From Longimicrobiales bacterium (GTDB taxonomy: Bacteria > Gemmatimonadota > Gemmatimonadetes > Longimicrobiales > RSA9), in assembly GCA_036374995.1 (NCBI GenBank), contig DASUSS010000093.1, positions 45,945-109,944 of the forward strand: a stretch of DNA of 64,000 nucleotides, in the 5' to 3' direction. The notes below the pieces were generated by a model, which saw nothing but the letters and a program-made list of their open reading frames with translations, searched no databases and was not told the DNA's origin. Positions 1,582-56,396 of the stretch are shown here, one piece after another. Position 1 is the first letter of the stretch. Every line of letters starts with the position of its first letter. Made by a program: the position numbers and the translations under genes.

Positions 1582-3354
1582 TCAGCGGGGGAATTCCTTC
1601 GTGTTGTTTGCCGGATCGAGGTCGAGGAGGATGTTGTCCGGATCGAGAGTGACGGACGAGGGTCGCGCGGTCGTGCTCAGGAGCACGATCTGGCGCGTCT
1701 CACGCGATGTCAGGCGCTGCACCGTGTCGCCGACGCGGATGTCGACGGGCATCCACGCCTCGCCGTCGCGAATCACCTCGATGCGGGCGATCCATCGTCC
1801 GTCGGCCGCCTGCCACGTGCTCAGCTCGCCTATGCGGTAGTCGAGCGTGCCCGTCGTATGGATCCACTGGTCGAAGAACCAGTCGAGATCCAGCGGACTC
1901 GCGGCATTGACCGCGGCGCGCAGGTCCGGCTCCGAGACGTGCTCGAGCCGCTTGTCCGCGTAATACCTCCGCAGCGCCGCCCGGAACGCCTCGTCGCCCA
2001 TCAGCCAGTGCAGCATACGGAATACGAGCGACGGCTTCGTGTACGTCATGGCGTTGTACGTCGCGAAATCGCGGAACTCGGCGGAAGGCAGCGCAATCGG
2101 CTGTGTCGCGCCGGCGCGCTCCATCTCACGGATGCGGTTCAGACTCTGTTCCCAGCTCACCGGCCGTCCGGACGCCGCGAACGCCCAGTTGGTCAGGTAG
2201 GAGACGAAGCCTTCGTCGAGCCAGCCCTCGCGCCACTCGTTGTTCGCGAGGATCCCGTGCACGAAGTTGTGACCGACCTCGTGCAGGATGAGCCCCTCGG
2301 ACGCGGAGCCGTCCATCACCATCATCGGGAACTCGGTGCCGCCCGGCTCGATGCGGTGCACGTTCGTGATCTGCGGCCAGGGGAACGGCCCGAAGATCTC
2401 CTCGAACCACTCGAGCGCCGCAATCGTGCGGCTCACGGCTACTCCGTCGTCCCATGCCGTGTCGCCGGGCTGATATAGCACGTGCACCGCGATGTCGCGC
2501 AGCGCACCGCCCTCGTAGACGTATTCCGGGCTCGTCGTCCAGGCGAAGTGGTGAACCTGCTCGGCGCGCCAGCGCACGTGCTTGCGACCGCGGGCAGCCT
2601 GTGCGGACAGCAGCCCGAGCCGCGCCGGCGAGCGGGGCGCATACGCGTCGCGGCGGAGCAGCGGCCGGGCACCGGCGGCCGCCGCGCTCGTCCAGCCGGG
2701 GTCACCCTCGACGGGAACGCCGGTCGCGCCGATGACCTGATCCGCGGCCACATCGAGCGTCACGTCGTAGCTGCCGAACTCGCCATAGAATTCGCCCTGC
2801 GGCATGAGCGGCTGCACCTGCCAGCCGCCGCGGTCGTATACCGCGATGCGCGGATACCACTGGGCGAAGTCGTAGTGTCGCCCGCGCCGGCCCTGGCGGC
2901 GCGGCGTCGTCGACGGACGCGCATCCCACTCGATGTCCACGGTGACCGTCCCGCCGGGCGGAACGGCACGCGGGAGGGGTACGCCCATCACGGTCGAGTC
3001 GGGCGCGCCCGGAAATACGGGCGTGATGCCGGCGCCGCCGATCGTGACGCGCTTCACCCGCTCGAACGCGTGCTCGTCGGGTCCGAGATCGGTGAAGCGG
3101 CGCTCGTCGAACTCCAGCTCGCGGCGCGCCCAGGCGCTGTTGGGCCGGAACGCATTCAGGTGGAGGTGGAACCAGAGCGTGTCGATGCGGGCCGGCGCGT
3201 TGTTGCGGTACCGGAGCCGCAGCCGTCCGTTGAGCACGTCCGCGGCCTCGTCGAGGCGCGCCTCGATCCGATAGTCCACGTGCTGCTGAAAGTACGTGGT
3301 GTCCTGGGCGACGGCAGCGGCGAGGAGCAGGGAGAGCACCAGCATCGTGACCAC
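1582..3354 (-). CDS. M1-family zinc metallopeptidase (aminopeptidase N-like), secreted
   Basis: 590 aa. Signal-like MVTMLVLSLLLAAAVAQD. Gluzincin signature HEVGHNF followed by WLDEGF (HExxH-x18-E). Confidence 0.85.
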   Translation of the reverse strand: MVTMLVLSLLLAAAVAQDTTYFQQHVDYRIEARLDEAADVLNGRLRLRYRNNAPARIDTLWFHLHLNAFRPNSAWARRELEFDERRFTDLGPDEHAFERVKRVTIGGAGITPVFPGAPDSTVMGVPLPRAVPPGGTVTVDIEWDARPSTTPRRQGRRGRHYDFAQWYPRIAVYDRGGWQVQPLMPQGEFYGEFGSYDVTLDVAADQVIGATGVPVEGDPGWTSAAAAGARPLLRRDAYAPRSPARLGLLSAQAARGRKHVRWRAEQVHHFAWTTSPEYVYEGGALRDIAVHVLYQPGDTAWDDGVAVSRTIAALEWFEEIFGPFPWPQITNVHRIEPGGTEFPMMVMDGSASEGLILHEVGHNFVHGILANNEWREGWLDEGFVSYLTNWAFAASGRPVSWEQSLNRIREMERAGATQPIALPSAEFRDFATYNAMTYTKPSLVFRMLHWLMGDEAFRAALRRYYADKRLEHVSEPDLRAAVNAASPLDLDWFFDQWIHTTGTLDYRIGELSTWQAADGRWIARIEVIRDGEAWMPVDIRVGDTVQRLTSRETRQIVLLSTTARPSSVTLDPDNILLDLDPANNTKEFPR

Positions 3355-3527
3355 TCACAGGAGAAATGAGCTGCGCAACCGGCCTTAATACGTAGCCCCG
3401 GCGCGGCCGTCCGTCAAAGCAGCAGCGCCGCTTCCGCACGCGACCGCATGCCCGCTTGCCCGGCGCGCTGCCGCGGGTTCTATTTTCCGCGCCAGCCCGC
3501 TGCAGGGCCCGTCCGGAGCGTGAGCCA

Positions 3528-4520
3528 ATGGAAACGAAGCGACCCACCAATCCGGCCGCCGAGGAAATACTCGGCCAGTACTTCCCCGTTCTCGACCACG
3601 GCTTCGTCTCTCTCGTCGATTACATGGGCGGTGATGAGAGCATCGAGCGCGCGGCACGTGTCAGCTACGGCTACGGCACGCGCAAGTCGAGTCAGACGCG
3701 CGGTCTCATCCGCTATCTGCGCCGTCACCGGCACACCACGCCGAGCGAAATGGTCGAGCTGAAGTTCCATTGCGCCATGCCGATGTTCGTCGCACGCCAG
3801 TGGATCCGTCACCGCACGGCGAACGTCAACGAGTACAGCGGCCGCTACTCGCTCATGCCGCTGCTGTTCTATACGCCGGAGCCGAGCGATTTCGCGCTCC
3901 AGAGCGAGCAGAACAATCAGGGCCGCTCGAGCGAGGCCGCGGATGCCGCGCTCTACCAGGAGACGGTCGCGCGGTGGGAGCGCATGCGCGCGGATGCCGC
4001 GGAGACGTACGGCTGGCTCGTCGCCGAGGATGTCGCTCGCGAGCTCGCCCGCATCGATCTGCCGCTCTCGACCTACACGCAGTGGTACTGGAAGATCGAC
4101 CTGCACAATCTGTTGCACTTCCTCACGCTGCGCGTGGACCCGCACGCCCAGCTCGAGATCCGCGCCTTTGCCGAGGTCATGGCGGGCATGGTGAAGCGCG
4201 TCGCCCCGTTCACGTACGAGGCATGGATCGACTACGACGTCGCGGGCGCCCATCTCAGCCGTGGCGAGCTGTCGGCGCTGCGCTCGCTCCTCGCGATCGC
4301 GGAGGACGGAGTCGGCGTCCGTGCCGGCTCGACGATCAGGCTGGCCGCGCTCGCAGCGCACGGACTGTCGCCACGCGAGGGTCGCGAGCTGCTCGAGAAG
4401 CTGCGTGACCGTGTCGCTCCCGACTTCGAGCTGGACCTCGGCCGCATGCAGCCGCCCGAGGTCGTCGAAGCACGAATGGGCGATGCGGTGCCGAAGGTCG
4501 ACCGGCAGACCGTTGAGTAG
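3528..4520 (+). CDS. thyX: FAD-dependent thymidylate synthase ThyX
   Basis: ThyX signature RHRTANVNEYSGRYS. The N-terminus FPVLDHGFVSLVDYMGGD is typical of the family. Start moved to ATG 3528 (METKRPT...) within ORF 3456..4520. Confidence 0.9.
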   Translation: METKRPTNPAAEEILGQYFPVLDHGFVSLVDYMGGDESIERAARVSYGYGTRKSSQTRGLIRYLRRHRHTTPSEMVELKFHCAMPMFVARQWIRHRTANVNEYSGRYSLMPLLFYTPEPSDFALQSEQNNQGRSSEAADAALYQETVARWERMRADAAETYGWLVAEDVARELARIDLPLSTYTQWYWKIDLHNLLHFLTLRVDPHAQLEIRAFAEVMAGMVKRVAPFTYEAWIDYDVAGAHLSRGELSALRSLLAIAEDGVGVRAGSTIRLAALAAHGLSPREGRELLEKLRDRVAPDFELDLGRMQPPEVVEARMGDAVPKVDRQTVE

Positions 4521-42603: not shown

Positions 42604-43440
42604 CTACAGCCTGAACTCCTGGAACAGCCGCTTCTCCTGCTCGCCTTCGATCAGCGCCTCCAGCTCGACGTACGGCTCGAGTCCGCTGCCGGCGAGCTTC
42701 TCGCGGAACAGCTGGTCGAGCTGGAACACGCCGGCGGAATTCGACATCTCGATGATCAGGCGCACCGGCTTGTCGGCTCCGCTCTCGATGTGCACGGCCT
42801 CGATGGCGGCGGCGGAGATCGAGTGGATGCTGACGGAGCCATGCGAGAACGGGATGCGGGAGCGGCCCTTCGCCATGTCGAGCGCATCGGCGATGCGGAC
42901 GATACCGGCCTCGAGCGTGAGTGGTTTGCCGCCCGACCGGTGTGCGATGATCGCGTGCAGCGTCTCGGCGATCATGATCGCGGCAGTGCGCGGATCGTAG
43001 ATGGGGCCGAACAGCTCCTGGAGTTTCGGCCGGGCGAGGAACAGCGAGAACGCCTCGTGGTCGGAGCGGTGGATGGACATGCCGATGTCGTGAAGCAGTG
43101 CAGCCGCCGCCACGATCACCTCGCCATCGCGCGGGTCCATGGCATAGTTTCGGACCACGGACGGCTCGACGCCGCCGTCGACCAGCAGGCGGTACAGCTT
43201 GACCGCGATGTTCATCACGATCTTCACGTGGACCGGCCCGTGGTCCGTCATGCCGAGCCGCTCGATCGCGTTGACGTTCGCCGCCAGCCACAGCGCGTAC
43301 AGCTCGTCATCGGCGTTGACCCGCTCGATGAAGGCGCGCAGCCGGTCGTTGCGCCGGTCCGGCACGTTCATCTCGATCCGGCGGTCGAAGCGCGCCTCCA
43401 CGCTGCGGCCGTATTCCTCCAGCTGATCCGTATCGTCCAT
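42604..43440 (-). CDS. HD-domain phosphohydrolase
   Basis: HGPVHVKIVMNIAVKL, AALLHDIGMSIHR and RIADALDM give the H...HD...D pattern. Start at ATG 43440 (MDDTDQLEEY). Confidence 0.75.
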   Translation of the reverse strand: MDDTDQLEEYGRSVEARFDRRIEMNVPDRRNDRLRAFIERVNADDELYALWLAANVNAIERLGMTDHGPVHVKIVMNIAVKLYRLLVDGGVEPSVVRNYAMDPRDGEVIVAAAALLHDIGMSIHRSDHEAFSLFLARPKLQELFGPIYDPRTAAIMIAETLHAIIAHRSGGKPLTLEAGIVRIADALDMAKGRSRIPFSHGSVSIHSISAAAIEAVHIESGADKPVRLIIEMSNSAGVFQLDQLFREKLAGSGLEPYVELEALIEGEQEKRLFQEFRL

Positions 43441-43529: not shown

Positions 43530-44201
43530 CTAACGGCCAGGCATCCGATCGCGAAGCGCGTCGAAGCCGCTCCGCACTGTGCCCGCTGCTGCACTCATGG
43601 CATTCTCCGCCGTCGCCTTCAGGCCGCCATTGCCGGCGGCACTCTTCTTCGCGGCGGATTTCCGGGAGCCCTTTCGGGCACCCTTGCGGGCGCCCTTTCG
43701 AGCACCCTTCCGAGCCGTCGACTTCCGGGCACCCTTGCGGGCACCCTTACGCGCCGTCGACTTCCGCGCACCCTTCCGGGCGCCCTTGCGAGCACCCTTA
43801 CGCGCCGTCGACTTGCGCGCGCCCTTCCGTGCGCCCTTCCGCGCCGACTTCTTCGCGGTCGAGCGACGAGCCGTCGACTTGCGTGCTGCCTTGCGGGCGC
43901 CCTTACGCGCACCCTTACGCGCACCCTTGCGCGCGCCCTTGCGCGCCGTCGACTTGCGTGCGCCCTTACGCGCACCCTTGCGTGCGCCCTTGCGCGCCGA
44001 CTTCTTGGCGGCCGAACGCTTGGCCGTCGTCCGACGCGCAGCCGTCCGCTTCGCGGCCTTGCGCGCGCCCTTGCGGGCCGTGCGGCGACGTGCCGACTTC
44101 TTTGCAGCGGTCCGCGTCGAAGCCCGGCGGGCTGCCGGCTTGCGACGGGGCTTGGCCTTCGACTTCTTCGCTGCACCCTTGGTGCTACGACGTGCTGCCA
44201 T
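43530..44201 (-). CDS. histone H1-like Lys/Arg/Ala-rich repeat protein (223 aa)
   Basis: Start at ATG 44201 (MAARRSTKGAAKKSKAKP). About 17 GARK tetrapeptide units punctuated by STAR(K). The non-repetitive C-terminus is NGGLKATAENAMSAAAGTVRSGFDALRDRM. Confidence 0.75.
   Translation of the reverse strand: MAARRSTKGAAKKSKAKPRRKPAARRASTRTAAKKSARRRTARKGARKAAKRTAARRTTAKRSAAKKSARKGARKGARKGARKSTARKGARKGARKGARKGARKAARKSTARRSTAKKSARKGARKGARKSTARKGARKGARKGARKSTARKGARKGARKSTARKGARKGARKGARKGSRKSAAKKSAAGNGGLKATAENAMSAAAGTVRSGFDALRDRMPGR
43656..44006 (-). repeat. in-frame 12-nt tandem repeat array (GARK units) inside the H1-like gene
   Basis: The plus strand shows reiterated gcNcccttNcgN units with interspersed gccgtcgacttNcg (recurring GTCGAC). 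Copies differ at synonymous positions. Confidence 0.8.
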
Positions 44202-44394
44202 GTGCACTCCTTGTTGCGGTGGCCGAGTCGACATTCCCGTTCGCTTCCGGCCGCTGGACGCGTCCGTCGGATCCGACGTTCTGCACCGCCCGACTGCACG
44301 GCAATTTCGGAACCGGGTTCCGCGTCGCGCGACACCCATGCGAAGCGAGATGTCGTTTGACAGTGAGAACAGCGTAAACGCACTCGTTCGAAAA

Positions 44395-44412
44395 CACAAG
44401 AACTTTCTTGTG
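44395..44412. promoter_or_regulatory. perfect 18-bp palindrome CACAAGAA-CT-TTCTTGTG in a divergent intergenic region
   Basis: It lies in the only AT-richer patch of the 440-nt gap between the H1-like gene (minus) and the NHL propeller gene (plus). The 2-nt centre favours a dimeric protein site over an RNA hairpin. Confidence 0.3.
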
Positions 44413-44642
44413 CGCTCAAACCCGCGAGCATCGCGTGGCGACTCAGCTTGGATGCATCCGGGCCGACATCGAAACCTGCAAAAGTCGTGTGCGCGGATGT
44501 TCCCGCGGCCTCGCGAGCGTCCCCGTCGGCAGTGCGACGACACCCGTGCTTCACTCTCCGGGCAACCTTTGCGCGGCCCGCGGGATCACACTTCTCCGAG
44601 TCACGCGGTGTGCAGCCGCAGCATCATTCACGGAGGGCAGAG

Positions 44643-46223: not shown

Positions 46224-47417
46224 ATGAGAGTCTCGAAACGAGTTGTCATCGCAGCGGCGGTACTGCTGGTACTGTCCCTGTCGGGCATCGGCGTGTATCT
46301 GCGCATCAGCGATCACCGTGAAGCGTCCGCCGAGACCCCGCAGCAGTCCGATGGCGACCTGCCGGCGAACTCCGCGGCGGACGCGTTCAGCACGGACCTC
46401 GCGGTTGCTGTCGAGGGTGCGGAAGTGGTCCGCGACACGCTCGTGCTCACCGTGGATGGGAACGGCGAGGCGGCGTCCTGGCGGCAGACTGCACTGCGGT
46501 CTCAGGTGAGCGGGCAGGTCCGCGCGGTGCGGGTCGTAGAGAACCGCGCGGTTGCGCAGGGCTCCGTCCTGATCGAGATCGATCCGACCGAATACGGCCT
46601 CGCGCTCGAGGAGGCGCAGGCGCGGCTGCGTCAGGCGGAAGTCGCCTACCGGGAGACGATCCTGGGTGATGACCGCATAGAGGACCCGCGGGTGCGGGCG
46701 GAGCGCGACAGTGCCGCGCGCGCGCGCAGCGGCCTGGACGCGGCACGCGTCGCGGTGGCACGCGCGGAGAACGATCTGCGCCGCACCCGGATCGCCGCGC
46801 CCTTCGCCGGGCGGATCGCGAACCTGAAGGTGGTGCCCGGGCAGTTCGTGAGCCCGGGAGACGAGCTGCTGACGGTGCAGTCGATGGATCCGATTCGCGT
46901 CGACATCAACGTCATGGAGGGCAGCATCGGCTACCTCGCCGCGGGGCGCACGGCGCGCGTGACGTTCTCCGCCTTCAAGGGCGAGGTGTTCGCGGGTCGT
47001 GTCGAGACGATCAATCCGGTAGTCGAGCAGGAATCGCGCACGGCGCGCGTGAGTCTCTCGGTCCGAAATCCCAACGGCCGGATCCTGCCCGGCATGTTCG
47101 CCCAGGCGGCCCTGCCGGCGCAGCGGTTCCCCGACCGCATCCTGGTGCCGCGCCAGGCGGTGCTCGAGCGCGACGTCGACCGGCGCCAGCTCGTGTTCGT
47201 GTTCGAGGGCGAGGGCGACCGCGGTCGGGCGAAGTGGCGGTACGTCACGACGGGTCTGAGCAACGCGGAGTACGTCGAGATCGTGGAGAATCCGGATACC
47301 GAGATGCTCGCGCCGGGCGAGATCGTGCTCGTCGCCGGTCACTACACGCTCCAGCACGACATCCCGGTTCGGCTCGTCGACAACGTGGTGCGGGCCGAGG
47401 GAGCGAGGCCGCAATGA
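46224..47417 (+). CDS. efflux RND periplasmic adaptor (MFP/HlyD family)
   Basis: N-terminal anchor VVIAAAVLLVLSLSGIGVYL. The lipoyl/beta-barrel blocks RIAAPFAGRIANLKVVPGQFVSPGDELLTV and MFAQAAL are typical MFP. Confidence 0.85.
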   Translation: MRVSKRVVIAAAVLLVLSLSGIGVYLRISDHREASAETPQQSDGDLPANSAADAFSTDLAVAVEGAEVVRDTLVLTVDGNGEAASWRQTALRSQVSGQVRAVRVVENRAVAQGSVLIEIDPTEYGLALEEAQARLRQAEVAYRETILGDDRIEDPRVRAERDSAARARSGLDAARVAVARAENDLRRTRIAAPFAGRIANLKVVPGQFVSPGDELLTVQSMDPIRVDINVMEGSIGYLAAGRTARVTFSAFKGEVFAGRVETINPVVEQESRTARVSLSVRNPNGRILPGMFAQAALPAQRFPDRILVPRQAVLERDVDRRQLVFVFEGEGDRGRAKWRYVTTGLSNAEYVEIVENPDTEMLAPGEIVLVAGHYTLQHDIPVRLVDNVVRAEGARPQ

Positions 47418-48766
47418 TCGGGGCGCGGCACACGGCCATGCTCGCAGCGCTGCTGGCCGGCGCGCTGCCCGCGTCGGCCCAGCAGGCGCCCACGGTGCTG
47501 ACGCTCGACGAGGCGCTGCGCATCGCGCGCGGTGCCAATCCGGAGTTCCTGCGGAGTGCCAACGATCTGGATGTGGCCGGGAGCGCCGTCCGCTCCGCGT
47601 GGGGTGCGTTCCTGCCGAACCTGAGCACGTCGATGAGCTTCAGCGGTTCGCGCTCGACGACGCTCGTCGGTACGGATCCCTTCGGTGACCCGTTGCCGTC
47701 GCCGCAGCCGGTGACATCGAAGCGGAGCTCGGCCAGCCAGGGCGTGAGCACGTCGCTGACCCTGTTCGATGGCGGCGCGACATTGCGGAACCTCCAGGCC
47801 CGGCGTGCGGCGTTCGCCGGCGTGGATGCCCTGATCCGGGTGCAGGCCGTCCAGCTGGAGGCGCGCGTGGCGCGCGAGTACTTCCAGGCCGTGCGCGCGC
47901 TGCGCACGATCGCGCTCGAGCAGACGCTGCTCGCCTCGGCGCGCGAGCGGCTCGACCGGACGGAGGCGCTGCTTCGACTGGCCGCGCGCAATCGGGAGGA
48001 CGTGCTCGGGGCGCGTGCCGACGTGGCGCAGGCGGAGCAGAACATGGAACGGGCGCGCGGCGAGGCCGACAAGGCGCGGCTCACGCTCGCCGCGACGCTC
48101 GGGATGGATCCCACGACGAGCATCACGGTCGACACCGTGCTGCCGGCCGTGTTCGATCCGGCGGAGCTGGATGTCGAGGCGCTGGTCGCGAACGCGCTCG
48201 CGAGCAGTCCCATCGTCCGGCAGCGCGACGCGGCACTGCGGTCCGCGAAGTACGGCGCGTCGGCTGCGCGCGGCCGGCGGCTGCCGAGCATCCGGGCGAG
48301 CGCAGGCTACAACCGCGGCGTATCGGCGACCGGCTATGAGGCGTTCGGCGATCTCAATCCCGACAAGAACTACGGCTTCAGCTTCGGCCTGAGCTTCGAC
48401 CTTCCGCTGTTCAGCCGGTTCCAGACATCGGATGCGATCGAGCAGGCGGACGCTGCGGCTGCGGATGCGCAGCACGAGCTGCGCAGCGCGCAGCTCGCGG
48501 TGGAGCGGGACGTGCGCGCGGCCGTGATCGACCTGGAGAACGCGCACCGGACGCTGCTCCTCGCCCAGGAACAGGTCGAGTACAACCGCGAGCGGCAGCA
48601 GCTGGCACAGGACCGCTATTCGCTCGGCGGCTCGGACTTCATCACGCTCCAGAACGTGATCGACCGGACCGCGGAATCGGAGCGCCAGGCGGTCGAGGCG
48701 CTGTTCGGCTTCATCAACGCCCGCATCGTCCTGGAGGAGAAGCTCGGCCACCGACTGGAGCGCTGA
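47414..48766 (+). CDS. TolC-family outer membrane efflux protein
   Basis: Start at ATG 47414 (ATGA overlap with the MFP stop). Signal MLAALLAGALPASAQQ. LTLDEALRIARGANPEF and the duplicated coiled-coil/beta pattern are typical of OMF proteins. Confidence 0.85.
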   Translation: MIGARHTAMLAALLAGALPASAQQAPTVLTLDEALRIARGANPEFLRSANDLDVAGSAVRSAWGAFLPNLSTSMSFSGSRSTTLVGTDPFGDPLPSPQPVTSKRSSASQGVSTSLTLFDGGATLRNLQARRAAFAGVDALIRVQAVQLEARVAREYFQAVRALRTIALEQTLLASARERLDRTEALLRLAARNREDVLGARADVAQAEQNMERARGEADKARLTLAATLGMDPTTSITVDTVLPAVFDPAELDVEALVANALASSPIVRQRDAALRSAKYGASAARGRRLPSIRASAGYNRGVSATGYEAFGDLNPDKNYGFSFGLSFDLPLFSRFQTSDAIEQADAAAADAQHELRSAQLAVERDVRAAVIDLENAHRTLLLAQEQVEYNRERQQLAQDRYSLGGSDFITLQNVIDRTAESERQAVEALFGFINARIVLEEKLGHRLER

Positions 48767-48769
48767 GCC

Positions 48770-51700
48770 ATGTCGCTGCCCGGGCTGTCGATCAGCCGGC
48801 CGGTCGCCGTGGCGATGTTCTTCATCGCCGTCGTCTTCCTCGGCGTCATCTCGTTCACGCGCCTGCCCGTCGATCTCCTGCCGGACATCGCGTACCCCAG
48901 GCTGGTCATCTATACGGGCAATCCTGACACGGGTCCCGCCGAGATCGAGCGGTTCATCACCGAGCCGATCGAGGCGGCCGTCAGCCGCGTCCCCGGCGTG
49001 GAGCATGTCGAGAGCGTGAGCCGCGAGGGCGTCTCCATGGTCGTGCTGCGCTTCGCGTGGGGCACGGACATGGACTTCGCCGCACTGAACGTGCGCGAGA
49101 ACCTCGACGGGCTGCGCGGCTCGCTGCCCGAGCGCGCCGAGCGGCCGGTCGTGCTGCGAACGGATCCGCGCAGCGAGCCGATCATGTCGATCAGCGCGGC
49201 TGCCGAGATGGACCTGTGGTCGCTGAAGGATCTCACGGAGACCGTCTTCCGGCGGCGGCTCGAGCAGATCGATGGAGTGGCGGAGGCGGCGATCACGGGC
49301 GGCCTCGAGCGCGAGATCCACGTGGATGTCGATCCGACGCTGCTCCAGAGCTACGGCGTGACGATCGACCAGATCGCGACGGCACTGGCCGCCGCGAACA
49401 CGAGCGCGCAGAGCGGCACGATTCGCCAGGGCCGGTTCCGCTACGCGCTGCGCACGCTGGGCGAGCTGCAGACCGTCGAGCAGATCGGCGGCATTGTGAT
49501 CACGCAGCAGAACGCCGAGGGTGGGCCCGGCGGCCGCATCCTGCTGCGCGACCTGGCCACGATCGAGGACGGCTTCCGCGAGCGGGAGTCGATGGCGCGC
49601 TACAACGGCCGTGAGGCGATCGGCCTGCTCGTCTTCAAGGAGTCCGGCGCGAACACGGTGCGCGTGGCCGAGCGCGTCGAGGAAGTCCTCGCCGAGCTGC
49701 GCGAGGAGTACCCGCTCGTCACGGCCGACATCGCGATGAGCCAGGCCGGCTTCGTTTCCAGCGCGATCGCCAACCTGATCCAGGAGATGATCCTCGGCGC
49801 AGTCCTCGCCTTCCTGGTGCTGATGGTGTTCCTGCGCGATCCCCGCTACCCGATCGCGATCTCGCTGGCAATCCCGATCTCCGTCATCGCGACGTTCGGC
49901 CTGTTCCACCTCTCCGGAGTGTCGATCAACATCATGAGCCTGGGCGGGCTCGCGCTCGGCATCGGCATGCTCGTGGACAACTCGATCGTCGTCATCGAGA
50001 ACGTGTTCCGGCACCGCGAGAAGGGGCTCGGCGCCGCGGCGGCGGCGGCGCTCGGCACGAAGGAGGTGCAGCGCGCCATCACGGCTTCCACACTGACGAC
50101 GATCGCCGTGTTCGGGCCGATCATCTACGTCGAGGGCGTGGCCGGCGAGATGTTCGCCTCGCTCTCCTTTGCCGTCGCCTTCTCGCTGCTCGCGAGCCTC
50201 GCGGTCGCGGTCACGCTGCTGCCTACCATGGCCGCGCGCTGGACCGGCCCCGTGAACCCATCCGGTGGCTGGTTCACCGTCCCGTTCCGCCGGCCGCTCG
50301 ACGCGTTCGACCGCTTCTGGGACCGCGCCGCGGACACCTACCAGGGATCGCTCGACGCCGCGCTGCGTCACCGCACCCGTGTCCTCGCCGCATCCGTGCT
50401 GCTGCTCGCGCTCGCGATTCCGATCGCGCTCACGCTGCCGCGCAGCGTGCTGCCGGACGTGGACCAGGGCGAGTTCCGTGCGCGACTCGAGCTGCCGCGC
50501 GGCACGCCGCTCGAGCGGACGGCGCAGATCGCCACCCGCCTCGAGCAGCTCATCCGCGAGGACGATGCGGTGGACGCCGTCTTCTCCCGCATCGGCAGAC
50601 AGGCCGCCGTGGTCGGCATGGACGAGGAGAACAGCGGCCTGAACACGGCACTGCTGGAGGTACGGCTGCACGAGGGCGAGCGCACGTCCGACGTGCTGGC
50701 CCGGTTACGGCCGAAGCTCGCCGGTCTGCCATCGGGCAGCATCGCGCTCGAGACGGGACAGGCGACGGCTCTGGGCCGGCTGCTCGGCGCGGGCGAGGCT
50801 GACCTGGCGGTGCGGATCCGCGGCGAAGACACCGACTCCGCGATGGCGTACGCCGCGCTCGTCGCGGAACGGATGCGCGACGTCCCGGAGGTCACGAACG
50901 TGCACGTCGGCGTGGAGCTCGGTCAGCCGGAGTTCATCGTGGAGATCGACCGCGAGCGCGCGGCCGCGTTCGGGATCAACCCGACGGAGATCGTGACCGT
51001 GATCGAGAACGCGATGCGCGGCAGAGCGGCCGCCAATCCGTTCGTCGCGTTCGACCGGAAGATCCCGATCATCGTTCGGCTGCCGGACGAGGAGCGGCGA
51101 TCGCTCCAGACGCTGGACTTCCTGACCGTCCGTGGCGTGCCGGTGCGCGAGCTGATCCGCATTCGTGAATCCGTCGGCCCCGTCGAGATCCCGCGGCTCG
51201 ATCAGAGCCGTGTGATTCCCGTCTATGCCGACGCTGCGGGCCGGGATGTGGACGCCGCCGTCGGCGCCGTCGAGGCGACGCTCGCGCCGACCCCGCCGAC
51301 TCCGCCCATGCGCTTCGAGATCGGCGGCGAGAACGAGGAGATGCGTCGCAGCTTCCGCGAGCTCACGTTCGCGTTCCTGCTGGCCCTGCTGCTCGTCTAC
51401 ATGATCCTGGCCGCCGAGTTCGAGTCCCTCGTCCAGCCGTTCACGGTCCTGCTCAGCGTGCCGCTCGGTCTCATCGGCGCCATCCTCGCGCTCTGGCTGT
51501 TCGGCGCCGGCATCAATACGGTCTCGCTCATCGGCATCGTCATTCTCGTCGGCATCGTCGACAACAACGCCGTAGTCATGATCGACTTCATCAACCATGC
51601 CCGCAGCGAGGGGGCGTCGGTCCACGATGCCATCCTCGAGGCCGGACGCGCGCGGCTCCGGCCCATCATCATGACCACGATCACCACGATGCTCGCGATC

Positions 51701-51952
51701 ATGCCCATGATGCTCGGGCTCGGTGCCGGCGCGGGACTCCAGGCGCCGCTCGCGATCGCCGTCTTCGGCGGCCTGTTCACGGCGACCGCACTCACCCTCC
51801 TCGTGATTCCGGTCGTCTACGAGAGTATCGCGACGGCGCAGGCCCGGCTGGCCCGCCGGCGTGTGCCCGTTCACCATACCGGCGCGCAGCGTCCCGCGGC
51901 CGGACCGGCGCTCGAGCACGAGGCCGCAGGCGGACGCGCGGGGGCCGACTGA
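48770..51952 (+). CDS. RND efflux permease (AcrB/CzcA superfamily), copy 1
   Basis: 1060 aa. MSLPGLSISRPVAVAMFFIAVVFLG. TM4 block GLALGIGMLVDNSIVVIENV. 12-TM architecture with two large periplasmic loops. Confidence 0.9.
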   Translation: MSLPGLSISRPVAVAMFFIAVVFLGVISFTRLPVDLLPDIAYPRLVIYTGNPDTGPAEIERFITEPIEAAVSRVPGVEHVESVSREGVSMVVLRFAWGTDMDFAALNVRENLDGLRGSLPERAERPVVLRTDPRSEPIMSISAAAEMDLWSLKDLTETVFRRRLEQIDGVAEAAITGGLEREIHVDVDPTLLQSYGVTIDQIATALAAANTSAQSGTIRQGRFRYALRTLGELQTVEQIGGIVITQQNAEGGPGGRILLRDLATIEDGFRERESMARYNGREAIGLLVFKESGANTVRVAERVEEVLAELREEYPLVTADIAMSQAGFVSSAIANLIQEMILGAVLAFLVLMVFLRDPRYPIAISLAIPISVIATFGLFHLSGVSINIMSLGGLALGIGMLVDNSIVVIENVFRHREKGLGAAAAAALGTKEVQRAITASTLTTIAVFGPIIYVEGVAGEMFASLSFAVAFSLLASLAVAVTLLPTMAARWTGPVNPSGGWFTVPFRRPLDAFDRFWDRAADTYQGSLDAALRHRTRVLAASVLLLALAIPIALTLPRSVLPDVDQGEFRARLELPRGTPLERTAQIATRLEQLIREDDAVDAVFSRIGRQAAVVGMDEENSGLNTALLEVRLHEGERTSDVLARLRPKLAGLPSGSIALETGQATALGRLLGAGEADLAVRIRGEDTDSAMAYAALVAERMRDVPEVTNVHVGVELGQPEFIVEIDRERAAAFGINPTEIVTVIENAMRGRAAANPFVAFDRKIPIIVRLPDEERRSLQTLDFLTVRGVPVRELIRIRESVGPVEIPRLDQSRVIPVYADAAGRDVDAAVGAVEATLAPTPPTPPMRFEIGGENEEMRRSFRELTFAFLLALLLVYMILAAEFESLVQPFTVLLSVPLGLIGAILALWLFGAGINTVSLIGIVILVGIVDNNAVVMIDFINHARSEGASVHDAILEAGRARLRPIIMTTITTMLAIMPMMLGLGAGAGLQAPLAIAVFGGLFTATALTLLVIPVVYESIATAQARLARRRVPVHHTGAQRPAAGPALEHEAAGGRAGAD

Positions 51953-54900
51953 TGATCCGCGCGTTCATCCGCCGGCCGATCGCCGTATCGATGATCTATC
52001 TCGTCATTGCGGCGCTCGGCATCATGGCGTTCCGCAACGTGCCGATCGAGCTGCTGCCCGACACCGACCTGCCGCGCCTCCAGATCGCCGCCTCCTGGCC
52101 CGGTGCCTCGCCGGAAGTCGTGGAGGCGTTCCTGACGGCGCCGCTGGAGGCCGCGGTCCAGCAGGTGCGCGGGGTGGAACGGATCACATCGAACTCACGC
52201 GAGGGCATGATCGGCGCGAGCATCGATGTGGAGTTCGCCCGCGAGACCGACATGGACTTCGCGCGTCTCGAGCTGTCTGAGCGCATTGCAGCGCTCGAGC
52301 CGGAGCTCCCGGTCGGGTCCACACCGCCCCGCATCACGATGTACGTCCCCGACGAATTCGAGGAACAGCAGCGATCGGTGCTGGAGTACACGGTGACGGG
52401 CCCGTACATCCTCGAGTACCTGCGCGAGTACATCGACGACCACATCGTTCCCGAGCTGTACAACGTGGAGGGTGTCGGCCATGTGGCGGTGAGCGGCGGC
52501 CGCGCGCGCGTGCTGGAGATCGAGCTGGATGAGCGGCGGATCCAGGCGCTCGGGCTGACCGTGCAGCAGGTCGCATCCCGCGTGGCCCAGATCGAGATCA
52601 TCCGGGAGGCCGGCGTCGTCGCCGTGCCCACGGGCCTGCACTACACGCTGGCCGTGCGCCAGACGGCACAGTCCGCCGCGGACATCGCGAGCCTGCCTCT
52701 GCTCACGCGCAACGGGGGTATCGTCCGCGTGCAGGATGTCGCCCGGGTCTACGACACGTTCGAGGAGCTGCGCCAGCACCAGCGCTTCGATGGCGATCCC
52801 GCGGTCATGATGCAGGTCTACAAGCAGGCGCGCACGAACACGGTGGCCATGGCCGATTCGGTCCGCGCGCGGGTCGACCAGCTGGCCGGTGCGCTGCCCC
52901 CGGGCGTCCGCATCCTGCTGGACCGCGATCAGAGCGTCGAGATCCGGCGACAGCTCTCCGACCTCCGCAACCGCGCCGGCATCGCCGCCGTCATCGTCCT
53001 GCTCGTGCTGCTCGTATTCCTGCGCTCGCCCCGCGCCGCGATCATCGTCTTCGCCACCGTCGCGTTCTCCATCCTCATCACGGTCAACGTCATCTACTTC
53101 AGCGGGCTGTCGCTGAACCTCCTGACACTGATGGGCCTCGCGATGGGATTCGGCCTGGTCGTAGACAACGCGATCGTCGTGCTCGAGAACGTCTACCGCC
53201 GCCGCAGGCTCGGCGAGCCCGCCCACCTCGCCGCGCAGCGCGGCGCCACGGAGGTCGTGCTCCCCATCCTGGCTGCCACGTTCACGACCGTCGTCGTCCT
53301 GCTGCCGTTCGTCTACCTCCAGGGTGAGCTGCGCATCTACTACGTGCCGCTCGCCATCGTCGTCGGCCTCAGCATGCTCGCGAGCCTCTTCGTCGCGTTC
53401 ACGTTCATCCCGTCGCTCGGGGCGAAGCTGCTCGGCAGCATCCGGCCCGACGTCGAGATCGACGCCGCGTCGGAACAGACCCTGCTGCTGCCCGCCGCAC
53501 GCCCCTCGTTCGTCGCGCGACTCTATGGCGGGCTGATCCGCGGTACGCTCGCCTGGCCGTGGCTGACGATCGTCCTCGTGGTGCTGATGTTCGGTGGGTC
53601 CTGGTACCTGTTCGACCGATACGTGACGACCGGACGACTGTGGAGTTTCTGGGGTGGCGAGTCCTCCTACCTGTCGATCTCCATCCGGATGCCGCGCGGT
53701 GAGGAGCTGGAGCGAGTCGACGAGTTCGCCCGCTTCTTCGAGGACCGCCTCCGCGTCATGCCGGAGGTCGATCGGTTCATCACGAGCGTCAGCACGCAGA
53801 GCGCCTACATCCGCGTCTATTTCCCCGACGAGTACGAGAACACGAACATCCCGGTCGCGATCAAGGAGGAGCTGTATCAGTACTCGATCGGCTACGGTGG
53901 TGCCGAAGTGCGCGTGACGGGGTACGGCCCCTCGTTCTACGGTGGGGGCGGCTCACCGCCGAACTACAGCATCAAGGTCCTCGGCTACAACTACGACCGG
54001 GTGCGCGAGATCGCCGATGACATCGGCCGGCGGCTGCAGGCGTACACGCGGATCCGCGACGTCGACACGAATGGCTCCGGCAGCAGGTTCGAGCGGGACA
54101 AGGCGACCGAGCTGGTTCTCGACATCGACCGCACCCGGCTCGCCATGCACGAGCTCACGGCGGAGGACGTCGTCCGTCAGGTCTCGGCGTCGGTGCGGGG
54201 GCGGACGGCCAACACCACGATCCGGGTCGCCGGCGAGGAGCGGCTCTTCGCGGTGAAGCTGGACGGCTACCGCACGATGGATGCGGCCGAGATGCAGGAC
54301 CTCCAGATCCCCGCACCGGGCGGCGGCGCGGTGCGGCTCGGAGACGTCGCCACCCTGCGCGAGCGGCAGGTTCTCAACTCGGTGATCCGCGAGAACCAGC
54401 AGTACCAGCGCCTGGTCAACTACGAGTTCCGGGGTCCGCAGAAGCTGGGTGATCTCATCCGCGACCAGGTCGTCGCGTCGACCGCATTGCCGCCCGGCTA
54501 CACGATCGAGAAGGGGCAGGCGTGGGCCTGGGCCGCCGAGGAGCAGCAGCAGATCTATGGTGTGCTCATCGTGTCGATCCTGCTGATCTTCATGGTCACG
54601 GCCGCCATCTTCGAGTCGCTCAGACTGCCACTGACCGTGCTGCTCACCGTACCCATGGCCATGATCGGCGTGTTCCTGCTCTTCTTCTTCGTCGAAGGCG
54701 CGACATTCACCCGCGAAGCGTACATCGGAGTCATCATGATGGGCGGGATCGTCGTCAACAACTCGATCCTGCTCGTCGACCACGTCAATCAGCTGCGCCG
54801 CACCCACGGACTGCCGCTGCTCCAGGCCCTCGAGCGCGGCACCCTCGAGCGCGTTCGCCCGATCCTGATGACCAGCCTCACCACCATCTGCGGCCTGCTG

Positions 54901-55098
54901 CCGCTCGTCCTCTTCAGCGAGACCGCCGACCAGAACATCTGGAACGCGCTCGCCTATGCGCTCATCGGCGGCCTCTCCAGCTCGACCGTCCTCGTGCTCA
55001 CCGTGACGCCGGCGCTCTATCTGCTCTTCGAGCGCCGCGCCGAGCGTCGCCGCCCCGCCGCGCCGCCCGTGCGCGACACCCTGCCGCAGCCGGTCTGA
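51952..55098 (+). CDS. RND efflux permease (AcrB/CzcA superfamily), copy 2
   Basis: 1048 aa. MIRAFIRRPIAVSMIYLVIAALG. TM4 block GLAMGFGLVVDNAIVVLENV. The start overlaps the stop of copy 1 by 1 nt. Confidence 0.9.
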   Translation: MIRAFIRRPIAVSMIYLVIAALGIMAFRNVPIELLPDTDLPRLQIAASWPGASPEVVEAFLTAPLEAAVQQVRGVERITSNSREGMIGASIDVEFARETDMDFARLELSERIAALEPELPVGSTPPRITMYVPDEFEEQQRSVLEYTVTGPYILEYLREYIDDHIVPELYNVEGVGHVAVSGGRARVLEIELDERRIQALGLTVQQVASRVAQIEIIREAGVVAVPTGLHYTLAVRQTAQSAADIASLPLLTRNGGIVRVQDVARVYDTFEELRQHQRFDGDPAVMMQVYKQARTNTVAMADSVRARVDQLAGALPPGVRILLDRDQSVEIRRQLSDLRNRAGIAAVIVLLVLLVFLRSPRAAIIVFATVAFSILITVNVIYFSGLSLNLLTLMGLAMGFGLVVDNAIVVLENVYRRRRLGEPAHLAAQRGATEVVLPILAATFTTVVVLLPFVYLQGELRIYYVPLAIVVGLSMLASLFVAFTFIPSLGAKLLGSIRPDVEIDAASEQTLLLPAARPSFVARLYGGLIRGTLAWPWLTIVLVVLMFGGSWYLFDRYVTTGRLWSFWGGESSYLSISIRMPRGEELERVDEFARFFEDRLRVMPEVDRFITSVSTQSAYIRVYFPDEYENTNIPVAIKEELYQYSIGYGGAEVRVTGYGPSFYGGGGSPPNYSIKVLGYNYDRVREIADDIGRRLQAYTRIRDVDTNGSGSRFERDKATELVLDIDRTRLAMHELTAEDVVRQVSASVRGRTANTTIRVAGEERLFAVKLDGYRTMDAAEMQDLQIPAPGGGAVRLGDVATLRERQVLNSVIRENQQYQRLVNYEFRGPQKLGDLIRDQVVASTALPPGYTIEKGQAWAWAAEEQQQIYGVLIVSILLIFMVTAAIFESLRLPLTVLLTVPMAMIGVFLLFFFVEGATFTREAYIGVIMMGGIVVNNSILLVDHVNQLRRTHGLPLLQALERGTLERVRPILMTSLTTICGLLPLVLFSETADQNIWNALAYALIGGLSSSTVLVLTVTPALYLLFERRAERRRPAAPPVRDTLPQPV

Positions 55099-55121: not shown

Positions 55122-55162
55122 AAAAAAAAACGAGGCGCCGCGGACTCACGGTCCGCGACGCC
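55122..55162 (-). terminator. rho-independent terminator (minus strand) between convergent genes
   Basis: The minus strand reads GGCGTCGCGGAC-cgtga-GTCCGCGGCGCC (12-bp stem with one G-U pair), followed by TCG and nine T. It lies 24 nt after the stop of the small zinc-finger gene. Confidence 0.7.
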
Positions 55163-55185
55163 CCGCCGCCCGAGCGCTGCCTGCT

Positions 55186-55467
55186 TCAGTGCTTCAGCAC
55201 ATGCTGGCTCTTCAGCACCATCTCGACGTGCCGCGCATACGTGTTGCCGCGCGGCAGACCCCGCCGGCTCGCCAGTTTCGGCTCCGCGATCGCCGCATCA
55301 TCCTGACGGATCAGAGCCCCCGTACCGAGGCAGTCCGGGCACGGATGCGCCTCGAGAAAACCGCCGTCACCTGTCGTTCCCGCCCAGCGGGACCACGGAA
55401 TCTCCCACCGGAACGAACCCGTTATGTAGCCACAGCCCTCACAGCGGGCACACTCATGTATTGTCAT
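55186..55467 (-). CDS. small protein with two CxxCxGxG zinc-finger motifs (93 aa)
   Basis: Start at ATG 55467 with GGAGGA 10 nt upstream. MTIHECARCEGCGY... and ...HPCPDCLGTGAL are two DnaJ-type CxxCxGxG motifs. Third-position G/C is visibly lower than in neighbouring genes. Confidence 0.5.
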   Translation of the reverse strand: MTIHECARCEGCGYITGSFRWEIPWSRWAGTTGDGGFLEAHPCPDCLGTGALIRQDDAAIAEPKLASRRGLPRGNTYARHVEMVLKSQHVLKH

Positions 55468-55567: not shown

Positions 55568-55699
55568 GGGCGGGATCCCGGTTTCAATCGGGAGCGGGAT
55601 CGGAATCCGCAAGCGGGATCGGGAGCGGGATCCGTAAGAGGGATCGGGAGCGGGATCGGAAATCCGTAAGCGGGATGGGGAGTGGGATCGGGAGCGGGC
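55568..55699. repeat. intergenic imperfect tandem repeat rich in GGG tracts
   Basis: Four copies of ATCGGGAGCGGG(AT/CC) at 55587, 55618, 55643 and 55686, with related fillers (CGGAATCCGCAAGCGGG / CCGTAAGAGGG / CGGAAATCCGTAAGCGGG). I counted at least 15 G3 runs on the plus strand. Confidence 0.7.
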
Positions 55700-55736: not shown

Positions 55737-56201
55737 TCATCGTTTCTTCGCCAGGATCGTCCCGCGGCACTTCGCGGCGCCGCAGTTACACGGGTAGAGC
55801 CGCTTGTTGGCCGTGTTGTGCGGCTCGTCGAGGACGAAGTTGTAGTCGTACACCAGCTCCTCGCCCTTCGCGATGTCGTGCAGCGAATAGATGTAGATCC
55901 TGTCGTCCTCCTCGACCGCCTCGCAGTTGGGATCACACGAGTGGTTGATGTACTTGGCGATGCTGCCGCGCGGGCCGGCATCGATCACATCACCGCTGTC
56001 GAGACGGAAGAGGAACGTGTGATGCCGCTCGTCCTCATCGAACGGATAGCGGCGGTCCGCCTCCTCGTCGCTGATCACCTCGCCGCGATACTCGATGAGC
56101 CGCGTGCCCGCCCTGATTCTGCGGGTCGCGAACACGCCGCGCCCCTGGATCCGGGATCGCCTCACCTCGAACGGTCGTGTCGTACGCTTCCTGGTTGCCA
56201 T
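55737..56201 (-). CDS. SET-domain protein-lysine methyltransferase with post-SET Cys motif
   Basis: GRGVFATRRIRAGTRLIEYRGEVI, NHSCDPNC, GEELVYDYNF and the C-terminal CNCGAAKCRG (CxCxxxxC) are the canonical SET/post-SET signatures. Start at ATG 56201 (MATRKRTT). Confidence 0.85.
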   Translation of the reverse strand: MATRKRTTRPFEVRRSRIQGRGVFATRRIRAGTRLIEYRGEVISDEEADRRYPFDEDERHHTFLFRLDSGDVIDAGPRGSIAKYINHSCDPNCEAVEEDDRIYIYSLHDIAKGEELVYDYNFVLDEPHNTANKRLYPCNCGAAKCRGTILAKKR

Positions 56202-56322
56202 GCGCCTTCGACTTCGGGTTACGGGAGCGCGCAAGATATCGCGCAGGCGGTGCCGTGCAAGTCCGCGGAACGATGCAGGCCCCGAACGCGCGTGGCACGT
56301 CCGGGGCCTGATTCAGACAGTA

Positions 56323-56396
56323 TGCCAGAGGGGAGACTCGAACTCCCGACCTCACGATTATGAGTCGTGCGCTCTAGCCGGCTGAGCTACTCTGGC
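56323..56396 (-). tRNA. tRNA with CAT anticodon (elongator Met, or lysidine-modified Ile2)
   Basis: Cloverleaf: acceptor GCCAGAG/CTCTGGC, D arm GCTC..GAGC, anticodon stem CACGA/TCGTG with loop CTCATAA, T arm GGGAG-TTCGAGT-CTCCC, discriminator A. CCA is not encoded. Confidence 0.9.

Follow-up and report, generated by a model that had tools for sequence, protein, structure and literature searches.

cpnSET of Chlamydophila pneumoniae binds the H1-like proteins Hc1 and Hc2 and methylates Hc1, and Go1-SET of Methanosarcina mazei methylates the chromatin protein MC1-alpha at K37 (PMC3980110). Several pathogens secrete SET effectors, and NUE of Chlamydia trachomatis failed to methylate Hc1 (PMC3980110). 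Work on bacterial SET enzymes has centred on effectors acting on host histones. What such enzymes do for free-living bacteria themselves is hardly known at all, Hc1 of Chlamydophila and MC1 of Methanosarcina being the sole endogenous substrates on record. Here, we analyze a SET gene in a 64,000-nucleotide (nt) stretch of a Longimicrobiales genome (GCA_036374995.1, contig DASUSS010000093.1, positions 45,945 to 109,944 of the forward strand; hereafter, the window). An earlier note on this DNA had identified the gene from the letters alone and considered it plausible that its product forms a nucleoid-protein methylation pair with an H1-like repeat protein encoded 11.5 kb away. The precedents that it cited are borne out by the literature. 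In our analysis, the gene is predicted to encode a native, vertically inherited, stand-alone SET plus post-SET lysine N-methyltransferase acting on one or more endogenous proteins, a reading to which we assign a probability of roughly 0.6. The two genes are as follows.

55737..56201, − strand: SET plus post-SET protein lysine methyltransferase coding sequence (best Foldseek match, MLL1).
43530..44201, − strand: H1-like polybasic ARKG/ARKST-repeat coding sequence, 223 amino acids (aa), net charge +88.

The SET open reading frame (ORF) starts at an ATG and encodes 154 aa (MATRKRTTRPFEVRRSRIQGRGVFA...RLIEYRGEVI...NHSCDPNC...ELVYDYNF...CNCGAAKCRG...AKKR), and every SET hallmark quoted in the earlier note is present. 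An alternative in-frame TTG start is possible at 56234; all of the 36 orthologues begin at the ATG-equivalent position with MAT or MTT. The Pfam SET profile (PF00856) matches over its full length (positions 1–105 of 105; 95 bits, cut-off 22.4, E=4.5e-27). The cofactor and catalytic motifs (GRG, residues 20–22; NHSC, residues 86–89; ELVYDY, residues 115–120) align with their MLL1 equivalents and are invariant in the 36 orthologues. The same is true of the post-SET zinc site, in which the CxCx4C cysteines combine with the cysteine of NHSC (C89, C138, C140, and C145). In total, 57 columns are invariant in the alignment of the orthologues (66–92% identity), including GxG, NHSC, ELxYDY, and the four zinc cysteines, a pattern that speaks for an enzyme that is active and subject to purifying selection.

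The closest sequence matches in the PDB are the SET domains of human MLL1–4 (E about 1e-31, 3e-31 for MLL1; 38–42% identity over about 142 residues). The top 15 matches are all KMT2A–D, followed by yeast Set1, ASH1L, NSD, and SETD2. The motif pairs in the HMMER alignment are as follows.

GRGVFA in the SET protein, GRGLFC in MLL1.
NHSCDPNC in the SET protein, NHSCEPNC in MLL1.
GEELVYDY in the SET protein, GEELTYDY in MLL1.
CNCGAAKC in the SET protein, CNCGAKKC in MLL1.

A Foldseek search with an AlphaFold2 model returned MLL1–4, ASH1L, and SET1 with a probability of 1.0, template modeling scores of 0.58–0.67, and 38–42% identity. By profile, motifs, zinc site, and fold, the predicted gene product is a canonical SET plus post-SET lysine methyltransferase, and its identity as an enzyme is secure. 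As an item of genome annotation the gene is ordinary: a 100%-identical protein from a metagenome-assembled genome is already in NCBI, and the automatic pipeline names its domain correctly.

The protein is a minimal catalytic module composed of SET-N, SET-I, SET-C, and post-SET. It shares this layout with the KMT2/MLL–SET1 enzymes (human MLL1–4 and yeast Set1), neither having a pre-SET or AWS region, and the NHSC(D/E)PNC, GEEL(V/T)YDY, and CNCGA(A/K)KC motifs are near-identical. Unlike those enzymes, the bacterial protein comprises the catalytic module alone, without the N-SET and WIN regions, and no genes for the partners WDR5, RbBP5, and ASH2L are seen in the conserved SET neighbourhood. Therefore, it is not architecturally a member of the KMT2 family. 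Its SET-I insert (DEEADRRYPFDEDERHH) is also far more acidic than that of the KMT2 enzymes, and the organism has no histone H3. The acidity of the insert is kept across the family. Short basic tails flank the module at the N-terminus (MATRKRTTRP..., about 10 residues preceding the SET domain) and at the C-terminus (...GTILAKKR).

The family is widespread, and its proteins are small. About 8,000 homologues came up in a word-indexed protein search; of the best 120, nearly all are 150–160 aa long and 69–92% identical, and those with a taxonomic name are Longimicrobiales or Gemmatimonadetes. An exhaustive search of 50%-identity representatives gave 16,332 clusters at E≤1e-3 and 161 at E≤1e-30, mostly of small stand-alone proteins; one distant member is a fish multi-SET protein. 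In a scan of one genome per species, 316 GTDB relatives carry the family-specific C-terminal patterns, and the best 80 of them are all Gemmatimonadota (Longimicrobiales, Longimicrobiaceae, Gemmatimonadaceae, and Gemmatimonadales). Within the literature library searched, no paper meaningfully connects SET domains with Gemmatimonadetes.

The genomic setting of the gene indicates that it is at home on the chromosome. Its G+C content at third codon positions (GC3) is 0.84, within the range of the other ORFs in the window (0.79–0.96; overall GC 69%), so the native codon bias noted earlier stands. The gene lies directly downstream of a tRNA-CAT gene, as the earlier note had stated.

56323..56396, − strand: tRNA-Met(CAT), found with ARAGORN, 121 nt upstream of SET on the same strand; also upstream of SET in L001, L003, and L005.

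The upstream order acyltransferase–enolase–DivIC–tRNA-Met–SET is kept throughout the Longimicrobiales clade with SET identity of at least 63%. In this clade, SET identity falls in parallel with that of enolase (SET/enolase, 92/93, 81/90, 80/86, 75/82, 70/82, and 63/79%), which, together with the native codon usage, points to vertical inheritance over a tRNA-targeted island. The earlier note had seen no integrase or tRNA-fragment repeat nearby. In accordance, we found no integrase-like gene among the SET neighbours and no second copy of the tRNA 3' end in the window, even at three mismatches; PADLOC gave no defence-system matches. From these gene-level comparisons, the SET gene is chromosomally native rather than island-borne, and its Gemmatimonadota orthologues appear to be vertically inherited.

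The enzyme would use S-adenosylmethionine to methylate lysine epsilon-amino groups in at least one endogenous protein. Because the conserved acidic SET-I insert lines the substrate groove and both end tails are basic, the substrates would most probably be basic, and most probably nucleic-acid-binding, proteins. The best named candidate is the H1-like ARK-x-repeat protein, although the genomic evidence does not single it out. The corresponding candidate substrate peptide is as follows.

ARK-containing candidate substrate peptide: GARKSTARKGARKG.

Several observations weigh against this reading of the gene or against its candidate substrate. The AlphaFold2 model, built with the 36 orthologues as input, is of moderate confidence (mean predicted local distance difference test score 69, below 50 in the post-SET region). 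MLL-type SET domains are weakly active without their partner proteins, so the protein, standing alone, might depend on some further cofactor. SET and the H1-like gene do not form an operon in the window, where seven genes lie between them, including an RND efflux operon on the opposite strand. Finally, clustering of 1,051 ORFs from 62 SET loci revealed no partner gene conserved phylum-wide; the commonest neighbours encode a DEAD-box helicase (divergent, 12–13 loci), a lipoprotein, a membrane protein, an M1 peptidase, and FKBP. Therefore, genome context gives no firm clue to the substrate.

The H1-like ORF, which the earlier note had placed at this position as a GARK-repeat protein, is real. 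The protein is 26% alanine, 21% arginine, and 20% lysine, and contains 19 ARKG and 5 ARKST units, compared with about 0.3 and 0.01 expected from shuffled sequence. Arginine precedes most of its roughly 45 lysines. No Pfam family matches at E≤0.01, and the NCBIfam model for the Burkholderia H1-like protein (hist_H1_lk_Burk) gives 14.5 bits (cut-off 80); the resemblance to H1 is compositional. A homology search of a database of 5.8 billion proteins returned nine weak compositional matches only, and the exact protein is missing from it. Orthologues with conserved termini (starting MA.R.S... and ending ...RDR(L/M)PGR) are encoded in L006, L108, L109, and L110. On the database side, the JGI gene caller placed a 260-aa protein ('FFAPDFLAP...'; L005 11950–12732, L006 2673–3455) on the strand antisense to the H1-like gene; the true gene in L006 lies at about 2893–3606 on the + strand. 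Given this antisense call and the absence from the database, polybasic repeat genes are probably under-annotated, which would bias database-based co-occurrence tests.

One possible reading, which we hold only tentatively, is that SET and the H1-like protein are a dedicated writer–substrate pair, in which the enzyme would methylate the lysines of the ARK-x repeats and thereby tune DNA compaction or protein stability, as proposed for cpnSET and Hc1. The abundance of lysines preceded by arginine and the acidic SET-I insert are consistent with this. The ARKS/ARKST unit is identical to residues A7–T11 of histone H3. As a conserved recognition site, however, an H3-like ARKS(T) was rejected: the orthologues carry ARKG, ARKA, or TARKGAAKK instead, leaving Ala-Arg-Lys as the sole conserved core.

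The Hc1 and MC1 precedents also favour such a pair, each with differences. As in Chlamydophila, a small bacterial SET enzyme shares its genome with an H1-like protein that is polybasic and rich in Lys and Ala. Unlike Hc1, the Longimicrobiales protein has no Pfam or NCBIfam match, including to any Hc1 model in those libraries; the host is free-living and has no developmental cycle, and the pairing here is putative. NUE differs further, being a type III secreted effector that does not methylate Hc1. Go1-SET is likewise a stand-alone prokaryotic SET enzyme, and its target is an endogenous chromatin protein. The Go1-SET system is, however, archaeal, and MC1 is a folded protein with a single methylated lysine (K37) rather than a low-complexity repeat protein.

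Support for the pair also comes from gene linkage. Across a Longimicrobiales clade that includes the window, a single syntenic block contains both SET and the H1-like gene, 1.5–12 kb apart. The order in the clade is enolase, DivIC, tRNA, SET, (NhaC), (93-aa ORF), the RND operon on the opposite strand, (beta-propeller), H1-like, HD, and, further on, TilS, HPRT, FtsH, FolP, and CdaA. In L005 and L006, which lack the RND operon, the H1-like gene follows SET on the same strand at a distance of 1.5 kb, with NhaC alone between them. In L034, a Longimicrobiales locus with a 60%-identical SET, a 289-aa unannotated ORF comes after SET, and a diverged ARKG-repeat gene lies beyond it on the same strand, 1.8 kb downstream of SET. 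The context of L034 is different, in that its other called genes match no other locus. Two such close, same-strand arrangements in Longimicrobiales are more than expected for a gene with probably one or two copies per genome, an estimate made post hoc.

Other results argue against a functional link. We scanned all fetched SET loci (80 GTDB) for K/R/A-rich ORFs by composition, with a repeat at relaxed threshold in uncalled regions. The only loci with such an ORF in the vicinity of SET are L005/L006, L034, and the window. The other Gemmatimonadota loci, roughly 70, show none out to 10 kb from SET, and 33 of them have the full 10 kb on both sides. A reciprocal metagenome scan from the H1-like protein yielded 20 heterogeneous K/A/R-rich loci (GC 29–72%, mostly short), none of which has SET or HD nearby. 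These are compositionally similar proteins of unrelated organisms, and the result is uninformative to negative. In addition, the block common to the two genes is an extended series of housekeeping genes (from enolase to TilS, FtsH, and FolP), so the linkage may be passive; passive synteny would account for most of it.

The conserved elements upstream of the two genes are as follows.

56232..56238, − strand: conserved TATCTTG element about 30 nt before the SET ATG, invariant as TATCTTGCG in an alignment of six tRNA–SET intergenic regions.
44396..44411, − strand: invariant palindrome AAGAAAGTTCTTGT upstream of the H1-like gene, seen when five upstream regions are aligned; it has no other exact match in the window (the + strand match at this position is the same palindrome).

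A shared regulatory motif was thus rejected: the palindrome is not found upstream of SET, and the conserved upstream elements of the two genes differ.

The pair proposed earlier therefore has partial support. The common syntenic block and the 1.5-kb and 1.8-kb arrangements keep it plausible; the missing operon, the differing upstream elements, the roughly 70 loci without an H1-like gene, and the reciprocal scan do not support it. Taken on its own, the claim that the H1-like protein is the physiological substrate of SET is in our view doubtful. Somewhat bolder, and on balance unlikely, is the proposal that free-living Longimicrobiales run a simple 'chromatin mark', in which an MLL-like minimal SET enzyme would methylate the Arg-Lys units of an abundant H1-like nucleoid protein and the two genes would have been kept 1.5–12 kb apart for that reason.

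Alternatively, the enzyme may act on an endogenous target outside the nucleoid, such as a ribosomal protein, a translation factor, or a partner of an RNA helicase, with the H1-like gene being an unrelated neighbour; this, too, we consider possible at well below even odds. Gene context around SET varies and includes no conserved chromatin gene. Bacteria commonly methylate lysines of ribosomal proteins and of EF-Tu; however, the known bacterial enzymes responsible are seven-beta-strand methyltransferases rather than SET enzymes. The DEAD-box RNA helicase gene is the commonest neighbour in the Gemmatimonadaceae loci, and this adjacency may hint at a connection with RNA or the ribosome. Against this, the helicase gene adjoins SET in only about one-fifth of the 62 loci and is divergent, not operonic. 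In L022 (8173–9957) and 11–12 other Gemmatimonadaceae loci, the divergent gene preceding SET encodes a DeaD-type helicase with a basic C-terminal tail.

It is very unlikely that the SET protein is a secreted effector methylating the histones of a eukaryotic host or grazer, in the manner of Legionella RomA/LegAS4, Chlamydia NUE, or Burkholderia BtSET. Its closest solved relatives are eukaryotic H3K4 and H3K36 methyltransferases, it shares a bacterial SET catalytic domain with LegAS4/RomA and BtSET, and it matches the NCBIfam T4SS_AnkI model (LegAS4/AnkI, NF043024) weakly. However, this match scores 47.5 bits against an equivalog cut-off of 550, and the SET part alone contributes to it. The protein has no ankyrin repeats and starts with a short basic tail, and its gene has no secretion-system genes close by. 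Moreover, the gene belongs to the core genome of free-living lineages from soil, its codon usage is native, and its neighbours are housekeeping genes.

Least probable of all, and hardly credible as a recent event, is that SET is cargo of a tRNA-targeted island or a eukaryote-derived transfer specific to this genome: a tRNA gene adjoins it and its best structural matches are eukaryotic, but integrase and tRNA-fragment repeat are both missing, GC3 is native, the tRNA–SET adjacency is kept in relatives down to 63% SET identity, and the phylum-wide family sits among thousands of small, prokaryote-sized SET clusters, which largely refutes recent, though not ancient, transfer.

Several further features lie around the SET gene.

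56278..56309, − strand: GC-rich hairpin just past the tRNA gene, inverted repeat GGCCCCGGAC...GTTCGGGGCC; possible end of the tRNA transcript.
55585..55698, no strand assigned: tandem repeat in the spacer between SET and the 93-aa ORF, with Tandem Repeats Finder periods of 12, 25, and 32; G-rich on the + strand (GGGATCGGGAGC units).
55186..55467, − strand: 93-aa zinc-finger-like ORF (ZnF93) with a CxxC...CxxCxGxG pattern, downstream of SET; DnaJ_CXXCXGXG 19 bits, below cut-off.
55129..55167, − strand: hairpin resembling an intrinsic terminator after the 93-aa ORF, a 17-pair stem followed by TTTTTTT.
46224..55098, + strand: four-gene RND efflux operon between SET and the H1-like gene (Pfam HlyD_D23, OEP, ACR_tran).

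In the tRNA(CAT), the acceptor pair is G1-C72 and the anticodon stem is CACGA/UCGUG, indicating that this tRNA is not of the initiator type but an elongator tRNA-Met or a lysidine-modified tRNA-Ile2. TilS is encoded within the same syntenic block in relatives. In L007 and L111, a hairpin followed by a T-run is present at the matching place after the tRNA. A sigma-70 consensus scan of the SET upstream region found nothing; Gemmatimonadota promoters need not fit that consensus. The TATCTTG element may be SET's own promoter.

The tandem repeat downstream of SET is a lineage-specific insertion, being absent from the 92%-identical relative L001. Its GGG-N3-GGG spacing could allow a G-quadruplex on the + strand. 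A structured RNA in the same spacer was rejected, the fold being no better than that of shuffled sequence (z=−0.18). Orthologues of the 93-aa ORF lie downstream of SET or NhaC in L001, L002, L007, L008, L015, L064, and L087; searches with the DnaJ zinc finger and anti-TRAP models gave sub-threshold matches only. In most relatives, a gene for an NhaC-type Na+/H+ antiporter directly follows SET, and it has been lost in the lineage of the window. The RND operon encodes a membrane fusion protein, an outer-membrane factor, and two tandem AcrB-type pumps (1060 and 1048 aa). Because it is absent from the otherwise syntenic L005 and L006, it represents an insertion/deletion polymorphism within the clade.

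The H1-like gene has its own conserved surroundings. In five genomes, the upstream region (44202–44440, − strand) consists of the palindrome, an invariant block TACG.TGTT.TCAC..T.AAACGACATC, a variable 90-nt insert, and then GTCGACTCGGCCACCG..A.AAGGAG before the ATG, where AAGGAG is the ribosome-binding site. This region looks like a dedicated, putative operator/promoter plus leader. The gene is followed by one encoding a phosphohydrolase.

42604..43440, − strand: HD-domain phosphohydrolase coding sequence, 278 aa (Pfam HD), directly downstream of the H1-like gene; a 100%-identical NCBI protein exists (P0296).

The gene pair is kept in L006, L108, L109, and L110, with HD always following at 26–90 nt on the same strand. 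At the HD-centred loci, taken from three genomes, a polybasic protein of 211–308 aa is encoded immediately upstream of HD in every case. The HD protein is 78–100% identical among the 120 matches listed. Judged by this arrangement, the H1-like and HD genes look like a two-gene operon.

Being small, phylum-wide, strongly conserved, and native, the Gemmatimonadota SET family is a good candidate for learning what SET enzymes do in bacteria themselves. The ARK-repeat H1-like protein offers a concrete and cheap hypothesis for its substrate; if that hypothesis is false, the enzyme is still a route to a new class of bacterial methyl-lysine substrates. If the chromatin-mark proposal is true, it would extend the cpnSET–Hc1 precedent to a non-pathogenic phylum and would provide a tractable model of chromatin methylation by a writer–substrate pair outside eukaryotes.

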